Shown: positions 1 through 5,132 of the stretch, one piece after another
Numbering within the stretch: position 1 is the first letter of the stretch
Layout of the letters: every line of letters starts with the position of its first letter
Assembly: GCA_000004695.1 (NCBI GenBank)
Contig: CM000154.2
Span: 512,001-576,000 of the forward strand
Source: Dictyostelium discoideum
Taxonomy: Eukaryota
Direction: 5' to 3'
DNA: 64,000 nucleotides
The notes under the pieces: model-generated
The model's database searches: none
The model's input: the letters and a program-made list of their open reading frames with translations, nothing else
Told to the model about the DNA's origin: nothing
Translations under genes and position numbers: made by a program

Positions 1-194
1 GATTTTCTGGGTACTTTCAGGCTTTTTTATTCTTTGAAAAAAAAAAAATTAAAAAAAAAAAATTAAAAAAAAAAAAAAGTTTGCAAATATAAAATCAACA
101 TTTTGGTGCGATAATAAAAAAAAAAATTATAATAATAATTAAATAAATAAATAAATAAAAATAAAAAATATTATTAAAAAAAAAAAAAAAAAAA

Positions 195-404
195 ATGTTT
201 GATTATTTTTTCGGTAGTAAAACAGAAAACAAAAAATTAAAAGTAAATCAGGTTTTAAAAAAATACAAAGATTTATATGCAATAACAATTGAAAATGTTT
301 TTACAAAAGAAGAATGTGAAGAATTAATTAGATTATCAGAAGAAAAAGGATATGAACCTGCATTGGTAGTATGTAAAAAATTTAAAATTTTTTATTAAAT
401 AAAA

Positions 405-446
<42 letters not shown>

Positions 447-985
447 CAGAATACCGGAAATGGTCAACAAGAATTAATGACAGATGTAAGAAATAATGAT
501 AGATGCATAATAGATACAGAAGAATTATCAAATAAAATTTATGAGAGAATTAAGGAATTTATCCCACAAGATTTTAGAGGTCACAAAGTTGTATCATTAA
601 ATGAAAGATTACGTTTTCTTCGTTATTATCCAGGTCAAGAATTTAAAGCACATTTCGATGGTTCATATGAAAGAACTGAAGGTCCAAAGGCAGGTGAAAG
701 ATCACATATCACATGTCAATTATATTTAAATGATGTTGAAAAAGGTGGTGAGACAACATTCTTTGTTGGCCCAAATCAAGAAGAAATTAAAGTCAATCCT
801 TCAACTGGTATGTAGTAAATAATTGTAAAAAAAAAAAAAAAAAAAATTAGAAAAATTAATTATTAATATTTATTTATTATAAAGGAATGATAATTTTATT
901 TCAACACAGAATTTTACACCAAGGTTCACCAGTAGTTTCTGGTGTAAAATACGTAATTCGTTCTGATGTTATGTATAATAGTTAA
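195..985 (+). CDS. 2-oxoglutarate/Fe(II)-dependent dioxygenase, prolyl 4-hydroxylase-like (3 exons: 195-368, 450-807, 885-985)
   Basis: Track ORFs 195-398 and 477-815 join through a GTATGT donor at 369 and a ...TTTTCAG acceptor at 447-449, in phase. Exon 2 carries the H-x-D motif (HFDGSYE) and a TTFF strand. A GTATGT donor at 808 and AG at 883-884 lead to exon 3 'GMIILFQHRILHQGSPVVSGVKYVIRSDVMY', which holds the second His and the 2OG-binding Arg. TAA stop at 983-985. Confidence 0.7.
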
Positions 986-1261
986 AAAAAAAAAAAAAAA
1001 AAAATTATAATAAAAAATAGATATTTTTTTTTTAATGGACCAGTAAAAAATGTGAAAAATGAAAAAAAACAGATATTTTAGAATTTGATTTTTTTTTTTT
1101 TTTTTTTTAATTATTTTATTAATTTTTATTTTTTTATTTTTTTTATTTATTTACAAAATAGTAAAAAAATAAAATAAAAAACATTAATAAATCGAAAATG
1201 GTAACAACAAATATAAATAACAATAAATCAATTAATATAATTAGTAAAGATATAACTTATT

Positions 1262-1312
<51 letters not shown>

Positions 1313-1882
1313 TTTTTTTATTAAATGAAATTAATAATCAACAAGATAGAATAAATCAATTAAGAATCGACGATGAATTTATAAATAACTATCATCACAC
1401 TCACCAAGAAACAATAAATACAAGGGGTAGAAGGTTTTTTAAATTTTTATTAAAGTTTAATAAAAAAAAAGGTTCAAATAGTGATACAATCCAAGTTCAC
1501 TTTTTTACACCTTACTGGTAATTGTTTTTTTTTTTTTGGTACTCATAGTAAAGTGGTCTATTATGCATCTAAGAATATTCTTTGCCTCTCTCTTATTGAA
1601 ACATTAAAAAAAAAAATGTTGGAATCAATTTTGAAATTTCTTTTTTTAAAAAAAAGAAAAAAATATAAAAAAAAAATATTAATAAAATATTGAAAAGGAA
1701 TCCAAAGATATTTTTGATTTTTTGATTTTTTTATATATTTTTTTTTGTTTTTTTTTTGTTTTTGTGTGGAAAAAAAAAGAAGGGTCTTGATGGTTTTTTT
1801 TTTTTTTTTTTTTTTTTTTTTGGTTCATTAAATTCTATTTTTTTTTTTTTTTATATATATATTTAACAAAAACTTTGCAATA

Positions 1883-2186
1883 TGGGTCAATCAAATTCAA
1901 GAAGTATTTATCGAAAAAAATAAATAAAATAAAATAAAATAAAATAAAATAAAATAAAATAAAATAAAATAAAAAAAAATTAAAAAAAATAAAAAAAAAA
2001 AATTATAAAATAAAAAATTTAAATGAAAAAAAAAAAAAAAAATAGCAATCATATAAATTAATAAAAATATAAAAACAATTAATTTAATTTTAACAAACCA
2101 CCCAATTTAGCTATTTATTTAGAACCGGTTGAGAGACCAAACGTAAAGGATTCAGGAAAAACTAATTTCAACTATTAATTCTAAAA
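1883..2186 (+). CDS. Possible third member of the tiny MGxxxS peptide family. Unspliced it reads MGQSNSRSIYRKK* (1883-1924). A speculative spliced form (exon 1 1883-1904, exon 2 ~2122-2186) reads MGQSNSRKPVERPNVKDSGKTNFNY*.
   Basis: ATG sits just after an A-rich tract. Position 6 is Ser, as in the two better-supported paralogs downstream. A GTATTT donor follows 'aga a' in phase 1. The possible acceptor TATTTATTTAG at ~2121 would give a K-P junction like the paralogs. The splice is weak. Confidence 0.2.
1917..1975. repeat. (AAAAT)n microsatellite
   Basis: About 11 tandem 'aaaat' units. Confidence 0.9.
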
Positions 2187-2404
2187 GAAATTAAACAAAA
2201 TACAATAAAATCTAATTTTTATTTGTTTCAATTATCATTTTTATTTTAAAAGAACGCAAATGTTTTCGTTTGGAAAAAAAAAATAAAAAAAAAGAAAAAA
2301 AAAAAACAAAAAATAAAAAAATTTTTATTTATTAATATTATTTATTTAGATTACAAAACAAAAATCAAATCAATTATAAACTTTTAATAAAGGTTGATAT
2401 TTAT

Positions 2405-2442
<38 letters not shown>

Positions 2443-2889
2443 AAATATCTTTCAAAGGGAAAATATAAACTTTAAAATAGTATTTATTATAATATTTTTT
2501 AGGATTAAAAAAAAAATCTTGGGATATAATTATTTCCAAATTTCTGTGAAAAATAAAAAAAAAATCTCATCAAAATCATGTATTAATTTTTATAAAGGTT
2601 TATTTTTTTTTTTTTTTTTGTAATTGGAAAAAGAAAAATACCATTGATATTATTAGATATTGTTTTTAACTTTTTAAAATTGGTTTATTAAAAATCTTAT
2701 TTTTTTATTCAAAATTAATTTATTTTAATTTTTTTTTTTTTTTTTTATTTTTCCAAATCAATTTAAAAAAAAAAAAAAAACAAAAAAAAATATTATTAAC
2801 ATTTAATCAAATAAAAACATATTAATATTTTTAATAACATTTAATAAAATAAAAAAGGGAAAATAAAAATTTTTGATAAAATAAAAAAA

Positions 2890-3059
2890 ATGGGTGCCAA
2901 GAGTTCAAAACCAAGTATGAATTAATAGATTTTTTTTTTTTTTTTTTTTTAACCCCAACTAATCTTTTATTTTTTTTTTATCATTTTATAGAATACATAG
3001 TTCAAGGAAGTAACAGTAGTAGTGGCAGAGGAGGTTCACGTTCTACTTTCTATGCATAG
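2890..3059 (+). CDS. Tiny 2-exon gene encoding a 30-aa peptide MGAKSSKPKYIVQGSNSSSGRGGSRSTFYA with a predicted N-myristoylation motif (exons 2890-2914, 2992-3059)
   Basis: ATG at 2890. Donor GTATGA at 2915 in phase 1. The 77-nt intron is AT-rich with a T21 tract and a TTTTATAG acceptor ending at 2991. Exon 2 is in frame to TAG at 3057-3059. It is paralogous to the 3311 gene: both have MG..S, a KP at the junction, and the ending TF[YN]A*. Confidence 0.4.
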
Positions 3060-3156
3060 TTGAAAAAAAAAAAAAAAAAAAAAAAAAAAATGTTATTATA
3101 TCCATCTATATGATCAATAAAATCAATCATTTTAAAATGATTTTTTAAAAAAATTT

Positions 3157-3233
3157 TATTTTATTTTATTTTATTTTATTTTATTTTATTTTATTTTATT
3201 TTATTTTATTTTATTTTATTTTATTTTATTTTC
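3157..3233. repeat. (ATTTT)n microsatellite
   Basis: About 15 tandem 'atttt' units. Confidence 0.9.
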
Positions 3234-3310
3234 GAATTTTATTGGTAACATTTGGATTTTCAGTTTTTTTTTTTTCAAAAAACCATCACCAAAAAAACAT
3301 AAAACCAATA

Positions 3311-3490
3311 ATGGGTATGTCCGGCAGTTTAAAAAGTTTTAAACCAAGTATGTTGGCAATTATCTGTATGGATTTAGTTTTTTTTTATTAAAAAACATAA
3401 ATAAAAAAACTAACAGATCTCTTTTTAGCACTATATGCTCAAAATAGTAATAACAGAAGTTTTGTTCGTCCAATAACCTTTAATGCTTAA
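3311..3490 (+). CDS. Tiny 2-exon gene encoding a 32-aa peptide MGMSGSLKSFKPTLYAQNSNNRSFVRPITFNA with a predicted N-myristoylation motif (exons 3311-3347, 3429-3490)
   Basis: ATG at 3311. Donor GTATGT at 3348 in phase 1. Acceptor CTCTTTTTAG ends at 3428. Exon 2 runs to TAA at 3488-3490. Exon phase, the KP junction and the C-terminal TFNA match the 2890 gene. Confidence 0.4.
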
Positions 3491-3702
3491 ATAAAAAAAA
3501 ATTAAAAATTAAAAATTCAATGTATGCATTACACAATAATAAATCAAAAAGATATTTTTAGAACAAAACTCCCGCTCTTTTATTTTTTTTTTTTATTTTT
3601 TTATTTTTAATTTTTTATTTTTTTTTTATTTTTTATTTTTTCAATTTTATGAAACCAACAACAACAACAAATAATATTTCAATATAAATATAAATAAATA
3701 CA

Positions 3703-3945
3703 ATGAATTCAAATAATGATAGTAATATATTATTTGTTAACCAAGTTGGAGAACTATTGACAAGGTATAATGAACAAATTGGTCAATTAAATAAAGGTTT
3801 ATTAGATTACTATTATAATAATGGATTTGATAAAAAGAATTTAAATAGTATTGAAAAAGAATTGGGTATTGTACAAGTATGATACCTTTATTTATTTATT
3901 TATTTATTTATTATTATTGTTTATTTAATATATATAAAGTTCCAA

Positions 3946-3985
<40 letters not shown>

Positions 3986-4321
3986 AAATTAGGATTGCTT
4001 TTCAAAAATGAAATGGAATTATATAGAAAATGGTAATAAACAATTATTTATAAAAGATATTATATCAGAGACACAAATTACAACACCAAGTCAACATAAT
4101 GTACATAGTTTAGAAGATCAATTAAAAGAGATTAAAAATGATTTCAATAATAATAAAGAGAAAACTAAAAAAGCATTTGAACATATCATTGAGATCATAA
4201 ATAGATTCACTGGTATGAATGAAAAATATCAAAAAGAGAAACAAAATTTACAATCTTCAATTAGTAAAGCAAATGAATTAATTGAAAATATATTAAAATT
4301 AGTTAATAATAGTAATAATAA

Positions 4322-4352
<31 letters not shown>

Positions 4353-4565
4353 AAATCTGGTAATAATAATATTATTAATTATAGTAATAATTTAAATTCA
4401 TCAATTCAATGGTACAAAAAATATAATAAATTTTTAGAATCAATGGGTGGATTATACATTATACCAAATAATGATAATCAGATAATAAAAAATTCAAAAA
4501 TTGAATTTGAATTAAAAATTGATACAACTAAAATAATACATAAATTAATAATAGAATTAGATGAA

Positions 4566-4650
<85 letters not shown>

Positions 4651-5132
4651 GTGATAATAATAATAGTGATAATGAAAAAGTTTTAAATAATTTACCAATT
4701 ATAAAAGGTTATAATTTAATACCAAATATTAATGAACTGAATAAAGTTTTACAAGATACAATATCAGATTATTCAAATGAACCCTTGGAATCATTTAGCG
4801 ATATTGGCTATTTAGTTGGTGAATTTAAGAATATAATTTCAAATTATTATTTAATGGAAGCAGAAATTCAAGATTTATCATTACGTTTTAAAATTAAACG
4901 TCAAACATTGAAAAATTATGGCGAACTTTCAATTCAATTACCAAATGGTTTCACTTGTAATCTTTATTTAGATTCTGATTATCCAAAATATTCAAATATT
5001 GAAATTCAATCAATTCAAAAACCAAATTCTAATGAATTAGTAACAAATTTATCATTTATTCAAAAAAATATAAATGAAAATAAATGGAGTTTATTACAAT
5101 TAATTGAAGAAATTGATTATTATTTAAAATAA
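3703..5132 (+). CDS. Coiled-coil/Asn-rich hypothetical protein with a possible RWD/UEV-like C-terminus (exons 3703-3876, 3993-5132)
   Basis: ATG at 3703 encodes MNSNNDSNILFVNQVGELLTRYNEQIGQLNKGLLDYYYNNGFDKKNLNSIEKELGIVQ. A GTATGA donor at 3877 and a TTAAATTAG acceptor (AG at 3991-3992) join it in phase 0 to the 374-aa track ORF. The C-terminus 'LPNGFTCNLYLDSDYPKYSNIEIQ' resembles an RWD-type YP motif. Function unknown. Confidence 0.5.

Follow-up and report, generated by a model that had tools for sequence, protein, structure and literature searches.

Unannotated two-exon micro-genes with predicted N-myristoylation-type starts at a Dictyostelium discoideum locus

Three short two-exon genes downstream of DDB_G0287671

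We analyzed a 64,000-nucleotide (nt) stretch of Dictyostelium discoideum AX4 DNA (assembly GCA_000004695.1, contig CM000154.2, chromosome 5, forward-strand positions 512,001 to 576,000), called the window here and used for all coordinates, with a G+C content of about 0.2 throughout. The first gene in the window (195–985, three exons) encodes a 210-amino-acid (aa) Fe(II)/2-oxoglutarate (2OG) oxygenase identical to XP_637136.1 / DDB_G0287671 of D. discoideum AX4. Downstream of it, comparison with related genomes identifies g1, g2 and g3 as three unannotated two-exon genes, each with a phase-1 intron (Table 1). They have a common layout, in which an exon 1 of 22–37 nt codes only for M-G-x-x-x-S-(K/R)... 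and is followed by the phase-1 intron and an exon 2 of about 60 nt. The products of the family to which they belong have 25–32 residues, are rich in Gly, Ser and Asn, are basic (net charge +3 to +5, except for g1) and end in [K/R]-x-T-F-x-[A/Y/V/C]. Exon G+C is 0.29–0.48, compared with 0.06–0.26 in the introns and 0.05–0.22 in the flanks.

The sequence features listed in a preliminary description of this region (open reading frames (ORFs), donors, acceptors, intron lengths and the peptide ends TFYA and TFNA) were all found on re-reading. Its start for the first ORF, 1883, needs correction, as the ATG occupies 1882–1884. That ORF, read unspliced as MGQSNSRSIYRKK before a stop, had been suggested as a diverged third member; it is a true member, and the 13-aa unspliced form represents only exon 1 of a gene spliced like g2 and g3. 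Exon junctions at K-P, described as a shared trait, hold for the g2 and g3 subfamilies and not for the others.

Table 1. Features of the micro-gene cluster in AX4, in window coordinates
Feature	Position	Strand	Description
g1 exon 1	1882..1903	+	22 nt, ATG GGT CAA TCA AAT TCA AGA A, MGQSNSR, phase 1; then donor GTATTT
g1 intron	1904..2110	+	207 nt; (AAAAT)n array at 1917-2044, expanded in AX4
g1 exon 2	2111..2178	+	stop TAA 2176-2178; full peptide MGQSNSRTIYLEPVERPNVKDSGKTNFNY (29 aa), ending ...TNFNY
g1 poly(A) signal	2204..2209	+	AATAAA inside a CAATAAAATC motif common to g2; also 3' of the D. dimigraforme g1 stop
Non-coding conserved blocks between g1 and g2	2430-2482, 2509-2551, 2619-2670		identity of at least 26/30 (sliding) to D. 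cf. discoideum
g2 exon 1	2890..2914	+	25 nt, MGAKSSKP plus 1 nt, phase 1; then donor GTATGA; orthologues 88-96% identical
g2 intron	2915..2991	+	77 nt, T-rich; branch-point-like CAACTAAT; acceptor TTTTATAG
g2 exon 2	2992..3059	+	stop TAG 3057-3059; full peptide MGAKSSKPKYIVQGSNSSSGRGGSRSTFYA, 30 aa, net charge +5
g2 3' untranslated block, conserved	3086..3132	+	AATAAA 3116-3121
g3 exon 1	3311..3347	+	37 nt, MGMSGSLKSFKP plus 1 nt, phase 1; then donor GTATGT
g3 intron	3348..3428	+	81 nt; ACTAAC branch-point motif; acceptor CTTTTTAG
g3 exon 2	3429..3490	+	stop TAA 3488-3490; full peptide MGMSGSLKSFKPTLYAQNSNNRSFVRPITFNA, 32 aa; orthologues MGAKSSKPKQYAQNSNNRGGSVRSTTFNA and similar
Synteny breakpoint	3510..3545		left, micro-gene cluster; right, upstream region of a Sos7-like gene

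For g1, two in-frame AG acceptors 12 nt apart (2109–2110 and 2121–2122) precede a G+C-rich island about 210 nt downstream, and both are in frame in six of six genomes. The 29-aa product (acceptor 2110) was ranked first because the upstream AG is the first to follow a TTTTAAC branch-point-like motif some 20 nt before it, because it is in frame and kept as x-I-Y-[L/I]-E in six of six genomes, and because it is the acceptor used in the D. firmibasis gene model RB653_008205, considered below. The 25-aa model (acceptor 2122, exon 2 from 2123, product MGQSNSRKPVERPNVKDSGKTNFNY) had been our initial choice and now takes second place. The C-terminal TNFNY of g1 resembles TFNA and TFYA. Exon 1 of g1 is 87–95% identical in the five other genomes, with its flanks at background, and the block at 2086–2184 matches D. 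cf. discoideum. In other genomes the g1 introns have 72–150 nt and are unalignable; the AX4 intron is longer because of the (AAAAT) array. Perfect or near-perfect pentanucleotide arrays were seen twice in the cluster, as (AAAAT)26 within this intron and as (ATTTT)16 between g2 and g3 (3153–3232).

The g2 intron keeps its GT and AG in all orthologues, with lengths of 72–82 nt, and the g2 peptide is identical in one of the D. cf. discoideum genomes (L013), with one synonymous difference. The most derived member is AX4 g3, whose exon 1 carries a 12-nt insertion seen in AX4 only; orthologous first exons have 25 nt (MGA[KR]SSKP). A second consensus donor, GTATGT at 3315–3320, arose with this insertion directly after ATGG (ATGG/GTATGT, phase 1). 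An AATAAA at 3490–3495 overlaps the last base of the g3 stop codon, and another AATAAA lies at 3538. Among the products of the cluster, YIVQGSNSSSGR would be a tryptic peptide and STFYA a C-terminal one.

Conservation in relatives and coding selection

The cluster lies in the same place, 3' of the DDB_G0287671 orthologue, in five other genomes, which together with AX4 make six: D. dimigraforme (L007), D. firmibasis (L008), D. citrinum (L009) and two of D. cf. discoideum (L012 and L013). Gene order in these five is the 2OG oxygenase, an ORF of about 100 aa, the micro-genes and an aminotransferase gene. When low-complexity sequence was masked, blastn of the window against the D. dimigraforme locus matched only the coding parts of known genes and pieces of the micro-genes (exon 1 of g1, g2 and g3, exon 2 of g2 and the g2 3' untranslated region, the g3 orthologue being reached through its similarity to g2 exon 1), and the unmasked search added a match to g3 exon 2. 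Members were collected by reading the loci and by a structural scan that called for ATGGG...Ser6, a GT donor 18–45 nt after the ATG, an intron of 45–300 nt, an AG acceptor and a product of 22–40 aa with Phe or Tyr three residues from its end. This yielded 24 intact members in five subfamilies. Across the 313 kb scanned on both strands, members occurred only in the cluster interval, with two unrelated false positives outside it.

The subfamilies are recognized by their consensus: MGQSNS[RK]-x-IY[LI]E...TNFNY for g1, MGA[KR][ST]SKP-xY[IYT]VQGSN...[ST]TF[NYT][AV] for g2/g2a, MGA[KR]SSKP-...NSN..R..VRSTTFNA for g3 and, on the minus strand, MGQS[SI]SK-SVQGGNK...GTF[NY]A for g4 and MGQ..S[RK]-.[VL]A[SC]G.[NK]R...TF[TN][CA] for g5. 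AX4 has g1, g2 and g3; L012 has g1, g2, g3, g5 and g4; L013 has g1, g2, g5 and g4; D. citrinum has g1, g2a, g2, g3, g5 and g4; D. firmibasis has g1, g2a and g5, plus a g4 copy with a TTG start; and D. dimigraforme has g1, g2 and g3, plus a decayed minus-strand copy. These last two additional copies appear to be decaying, the D. firmibasis g4-like gene (L008 13981, minus strand) with TTG for ATG and the D. dimigraforme remnant (L007 ~13190, minus strand) with ATA for ATG (ATA GGT CAA CCA AGT TCA AAG). Three g5 copies (L009 14126, L012 13736 and L013 15994, all minus strand) end in a C-terminal Cys (TFTC or TFNC), not Ala, Tyr or Val, and this residue could be a second lipidation site or a redox site. 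In D. purpureum, the loci that hold the two closest 2OG homologues (L010 and L011) are non-syntenic and contained no member; as far as tested, the family appears specific to the D. discoideum species complex.

Sequence identity is concentrated in the exons. Between orthologues it is 0.86 in exon 1 and 0.75 in exon 2, compared with 0.54 in the introns, 0.56–0.57 in 200-nt flanks and 0.49–0.55 in shuffled controls. The preliminary description had named conservation of the flanking DNA, and not of the peptides, as the outcome that would count against it, and the opposite is seen. Against the closest relative, the conserved blocks coincide with the exons, the intron 3' ends (branch point and acceptor) and the poly(A)-signal regions. 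Pooled over g1, g2 and g3, the ratio of non-synonymous to synonymous change (dN/dS, Nei-Gojobori) was 0.38 between AX4 and D. dimigraforme (Fisher p 5e-3), 0.24 between AX4 and D. citrinum (p 6e-5) and 0.19 between D. dimigraforme and D. citrinum (p 9e-6); for g2 alone, it was 0.11–0.18 against D. dimigraforme and D. citrinum. AX4 g1 differs from both D. cf. discoideum genomes by 4 synonymous codons and 1 conservative non-synonymous codon, and g3 differs between D. cf. discoideum and D. citrinum by 11 synonymous and 2 non-synonymous codons. Differences at codon positions 1, 2 and 3 number 88, 129 and 182, and where orthologous coding sequences differ in length, they do so by multiples of three, so that the frame is kept. 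All 24 second exons are open in the proposed frame, while the other frames are open in 12, 0, 6, 6 and 2 of 24.

An alignment of 22 sequences has only four invariant columns, namely Met1, Gly2, Ser6 and the Phe at position -3 counted from the C-terminus. Gly2 and Ser6, which the preliminary description had named as the N-myristoyltransferase consensus, are present in all 24 members, through synonymous codon changes (GGT, GGC or GGA for Gly2; TCA, TCT or AGT for Ser6). As expected of small-ORF (smORF) genes, the frame, start, stop and splice sites are conserved across species and dN/dS is below 1. Judged from these comparisons, the genes, with their splice signals, frame and stops, are under purifying selection in the six genomes, and we consider it highly likely that the family is protein-coding.

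One annotated gene in a relative includes a member. In D. firmibasis, a gene encoding 123 aa is annotated at L008 11125–12021 and ends at the g1 stop. Only one exon combination yields 123 aa, namely the upstream ORF to TG/GTAATT, a 26-nt exon (TATA-ATGGGTCAATCAAATTCAAAGA), the g1 donor, the upstream acceptor and exon 2, and its translation is exactly KAK5578533.1 / RB653_008205. The last 31 residues of RB653_008205 are the g1 orthologue MGQSNSKNIYIESAEKPNGSGGGGRRTDFAY, and this is the sole public protein record with any member of the family. The D. firmibasis genome was annotated with MAKER from genome-guided Trinity transcripts of three life-cycle stages together with the D. discoideum proteome (PMC11193728). 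As that proteome contains neither g1 nor the upstream ORF, the D. firmibasis g1 intron, with its upstream acceptor, is most likely transcript-supported.

Elsewhere, the genes have escaped annotation. An AX4-like re-assembly (GCA_054883475.1, locus L001) differs from window 1521–3702 by five indel bases only, mostly in homopolymer runs, and has no called gene between a 107-aa ORF (1198–1521) and the Sos7-like gene (3703–5132); likewise, the micro-genes have no gene call at the orthologous sites in D. dimigraforme, D. citrinum and both D. cf. discoideum genomes. The g1, g2 and g3 peptides, in every splice version, had no exact match in a 15-billion-protein collection, and a concatenated query of the three retrieved no protein sharing even three 5-mers. 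Pfam gave no significant match (best E-value 0.029, for 1/14 members and to an unrelated family), and a PDB sequence search gave E-values of at least 0.68, with the match confined to the first 8–12 residues. Rfam and tRNA scans of the window returned 0 matches each, as did two degenerate exon-1 patterns run against JGI metagenome contigs. A literature search found nothing on the peptide strings, neighboring DDB_G identifiers or Dictyostelium smORFs, nor the phrase 'myristoylated microprotein' or its variants. With peptides conserved in five other Dictyostelium genomes and no public protein match for the AX4 peptides, the earlier suspicion of an unannotated micro-protein family was well founded.

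Turnover of the locus and neighboring sequences

In AX4, cluster-side homology ends at about 3510 and homology to the region upstream of the Sos7-like gene starts at 3545. At this point the relatives carry two further minus-strand members and the aminotransferase gene; neither the aminotransferase gene nor g4 or g5 was found in the window, and AX4 copies of g4 and g5 would be expected near the aminotransferase orthologue at another place in the genome. A rearrangement 20–55 bp after the g3 stop has removed the right half of the AX4 cluster from here, with a breakpoint that, judging from the genomes compared, is specific to the AX4 lineage. The family turns over by tandem duplication, inversion and loss. 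Sos7-like orthologues (PF20882) lie downstream of an R3H gene in D. firmibasis (L002), D. purpureum (L003) and GCA_054859355.1 (L004, labelled D. discoideum), and these three loci contain no family member; the Sos7 side is not the ancestral neighbor of the cluster. As homology to the window starts only at 3545, this side is uninformative about the cluster and reveals the rearrangement.

Two further loci from assemblies labelled D. discoideum (L005, GCA_054859355.1; L006, GCA_054859385.1) lose homology to the window at about 1159, and there a PA14-domain gene follows the DDB_G0287671 orthologue in place of the 107-aa ORF and micro-genes. Identity between AX4 and the assemblies of L004–L006 is only ~95% across 4.5 kb of the Sos7 region and 85% around the 2OG gene (window 25–1159). 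Either the cluster has moved or been lost in GCA_054859355.1 and GCA_054859385.1, or these represent a different cryptic species.

On the other side of the micro-genes, the single-exon 107-aa ORF (1198–1521, plus strand; MVTTNINNNK...RRFFKFLLKF...DTIQVHFFTPYW, then a stop) is kept in D. dimigraforme, D. firmibasis and D. cf. discoideum. An exact-sequence look-up gave no match for it, yet it is called as a gene on GCA_054883475.1. About 95 nt 3' of its stop are also conserved (block to ~1615). The Sos7-like gene (3703–5132, plus strand) has two exons and encodes 437 aa with long Asn runs and a Pfam PF20882 domain (kinetochore protein Sos7); the protein shares 81% identity with the D. firmibasis orthologue and 57% with that of D. 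purpureum. The non-coding blocks between g1 and g2 (2430–2670) are partly matched in L013 and partly recognizable in D. dimigraforme (e.g., AAAAAATCTTGGGA). They contain no conserved ORF and have no Rfam match, and could represent promoter elements of g2 or a small RNA.

Predicted membrane anchor and competing explanations

Our preferred explanation, which we hold with a probability of roughly 0.72, is that window 1882–3490 contains three independent AX4 micro-genes whose products are myristoylated, membrane-tethered micro-peptides with a conserved T-F-x-[A/Y/V/C] tail. That the peptides are myristoylated and membrane-bound is a prediction from their sequence in which our confidence is moderate. 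Substrates of N-myristoyltransferase (NMT) follow a PROSITE PS00008-type rule, G-{EDRKHPFYW}-x(2)-[STAGCN]-{P}, in which residue 3 must not be charged, aromatic or Pro, residue 6 must be small (preferably Ser or Thr), and residue 7 may be any but Pro, with Lys or Arg favorable. All 24 members have the initiator Met followed by Gly2 and agree with this rule, with Ala, Gln or Met at residue 3, the invariant Ser at residue 6 and Lys or Arg at residue 7 in 23/24, the other being the Leu of AX4 g3. In AX4 g3, the 12-nt insertion brought back a Ser at position 6, now from a different codon family. A basic cluster like that of SH4 segments is present in the g2 and g3 subfamilies, which have Lys or Arg at positions 4 and 7, with position 9 basic in several members; AX4 g3 differs here. 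Net charge is +3 to +5 in g2–g5, which are almost without acidic residues, and +1 to +2 in g1 (+1 in AX4).

Anchors of the Src SH4 type combine a myristate with a basic patch to bind membranes reversibly, and the Src-family start (MGSNKSKPK...) closely resembles that of the family. In the mechanism that we propose, the initiator Met would be removed and NMT would acylate Gly2, with Ser6 and Lys/Arg7 as the classic recognition residues. The myristate, together with the N-terminal lysines, would then tether the peptide reversibly to acidic inner-leaflet membranes, as in Src SH4 or Dictyostelium PKBR1. The C-terminal Phe, in [K/R]-x(0-2)-T-F-x-[A/Y/V/C]-COOH with a basic residue 1–3 positions before the conserved Thr, may be presented on the membrane to a partner protein, as a docking site or a site regulated by phosphorylation; more speculatively, the Thr with its upstream basic residue resembles a site for a basophilic kinase. 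There are precedents for such anchoring: the N-terminal myristoylation motif of Irgb10 is required for its membrane targeting (PMC3681737), PKBR1 is myristoylated at its N-terminus and thereby held at the Dictyostelium membrane, and short peptides that are lipidated or cationic partition to particular membrane states in Dictyostelium (bioRxiv 10.1101/2023.01.03.522496).

With the SH4-type anchors of Src-family kinases, mouse Irgb10 and Dictyostelium PKBR1, the family shares the Met-Gly start, Ser6, Lys/Arg7 and further lysines within the first 10 residues. The g4/g5 start, MGQSSSK, is identical to the Irgb10 N-terminus over seven residues, and in a PDB profile match the family profile covers its first eight (MGQSSSKP). 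In those proteins, however, the anchor is the first 10–15 residues of a large kinase or GTPase, whereas here it forms a third of the whole product: with 25–32 aa and no Pfam domain, no folded catalytic or adaptor domain follows. The family would work like an SH4 segment without being a member of the SH4 protein families, and as there is no homology beyond the motif, the likeness is most likely convergent. Kinetoplastid HASPB and SMP-1 and MARCKS-like proteins are also small or disordered and are localized by an N-terminal acylation signal, and phosphorylation near their basic residues may regulate binding. They exceed our products in length by a factor of three to ten or more and are not related to them in sequence, and Pfam and PDB searches gave no match here; HASPB also needs palmitoylation of a Cys that is absent from the present peptides. 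Like smORF genes such as Drosophila tarsal-less/pri (11-aa products), sarcolamban and the vertebrate micropeptides, the family has products of under 35 aa that were missed by annotation, are recognized by conservation and come as repeated units at one locus. Those genes are polycistronic or encode transmembrane products, while each of ours stands alone, has two exons and codes for a soluble, basic, Gly/Ser-rich peptide that begins with a lipidation-type motif.

Several observations weigh against the preferred explanation. Myristoylation is predicted from a loose motif, and the cellular function is one that we infer wholly from sequence. Peptides of 25–32 residues are shorter than the ribosomal exit tunnel, so that Met removal and acylation would have to follow release and could not be co-translational, as is usual. 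The charge of g1 is only +1, which makes an electrostatic contribution to its membrane binding doubtful. The sole transcript-derived support concerns g1 in D. firmibasis, where it is fused to the upstream ORF and its MG is internal. AX4 g3 has a dN/dS of about 1 against D. dimigraforme, carries the 12-nt insertion and adjoins the breakpoint, and it may be decaying; use of its second donor (3315) with the same acceptor would yield MALYAQNSNNRSFVRPITFNA, which has no MG start and hence no Gly2 signal. Finally, the D. purpureum loci are not syntenic, and the restriction to the species complex is tentative.

The permissiveness of the PROSITE-type motif, the limited access of ordinary co-translational NMT to such short peptides and the low charge of g1, together with the fact that no Dictyostelium myristoylome was found in our literature search, could also mean that the genes are translated into soluble peptides whose MGxxxS start serves N-terminal acetylation or stability rules, the initiation context or a protein contact. 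We regard this as unlikely, though it deserves to be taken seriously, as Gly2 and Ser6 are two of only four invariant columns among subfamilies otherwise 21–44% identical, Lys/Arg7 is nearly universal, the AX4 g3 insertion restored Ser6 with another codon family, and the N-terminus of the family profile matches eight residues of Irgb10 that form a membrane-targeting myristoylation motif. It is improbable that the blocks are exons of larger units, with g1 as the 3' part of the gene of the upstream 107-aa ORF or the MG exons as alternative first exons of a downstream gene. The transcript-based RB653_008205 does join the upstream ORF to g1 through its 26-nt exon, but the fusion requires an AG just upstream of the g1 ATG that AX4 lacks, and in D. 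dimigraforme the junction (TG/A) is a stop; as the fusion is not conserved, g1 was treated as a separate gene. The upstream ORF, moreover, has kept its ...FTPYW-stop ending in AX4, D. dimigraforme and D. firmibasis, and no member lacks an ATG and in-frame stop of its own or an AATAAA close by. Two subfamilies are encoded on the other strand, and the downstream gene in AX4 (Sos7-like) is adjacent only because of the recent rearrangement.

A non-coding role for the conserved blocks, whether in regulatory DNA or in a non-coding RNA with spliced exons, in which the open frames would be incidental, seems very improbable. The ORFs are indeed very short, their translation is a prediction from sequence comparison and other conserved non-coding blocks adjoin at 2430–2670; against this stand the synonymous excess (dN/dS 0.19–0.38, with Fisher p down to 9e-6), the concentration of changes at third codon positions, length differences in multiples of three, the single frame open in every second exon, the conservation of the ATG, Gly2, Ser6 and stop position, and the lack of an Rfam or tRNA match. 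Chance ORFs in AT-rich DNA can be practically dismissed. The preliminary description had argued that chance was unlikely. Over the whole window and both strands, ATG-GGN-(9 nt)-Ser starts number 6 against ~3.9 expected from shuffles and are thus not over-represented, although three of them share a strand and a stretch of 1.43 kb. The 12-mer AAACCAAGTATG, which spans the junction of exon 1 and donor, occurs in 2 copies against 0.02 expected (0/100 shuffles reach 2). Conservation in six genomes refutes chance, and the exons exceed their surroundings two- to four-fold in G+C.

Although D. discoideum is so widely used as a model and its genome has been curated, at least three AX4 genes of this family (up to six per genome in relatives) are missing from protein sets, which indicates that spliced ORFs of around 30 codons escape annotation even here. 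The entire AX4 cluster measures only 1.6 kb, so that a clean deletion would be easy. If myristoylated, the peptides would rank among the smallest NMT substrates in nature and would offer a convenient natural system for the partitioning of a bare lipid-plus-charge anchor, for which synthetic peptides have been used in Dictyostelium. The invariant Phe motif at the C-terminus suggests a specific partner. As a tentative and rather doubtful extension, these lineage-restricted, fast-turnover and minimal lipid-anchored peptides, each composed of an NMT signal, a Gly/Ser/Asn/Arg linker and a four-residue tail, might be membrane-displayed docking or pseudo-substrate modules that tune an inner-leaflet signaling or trafficking protein and, being too short for co-translational processing, natural substrates for post-translational N-myristoylation.

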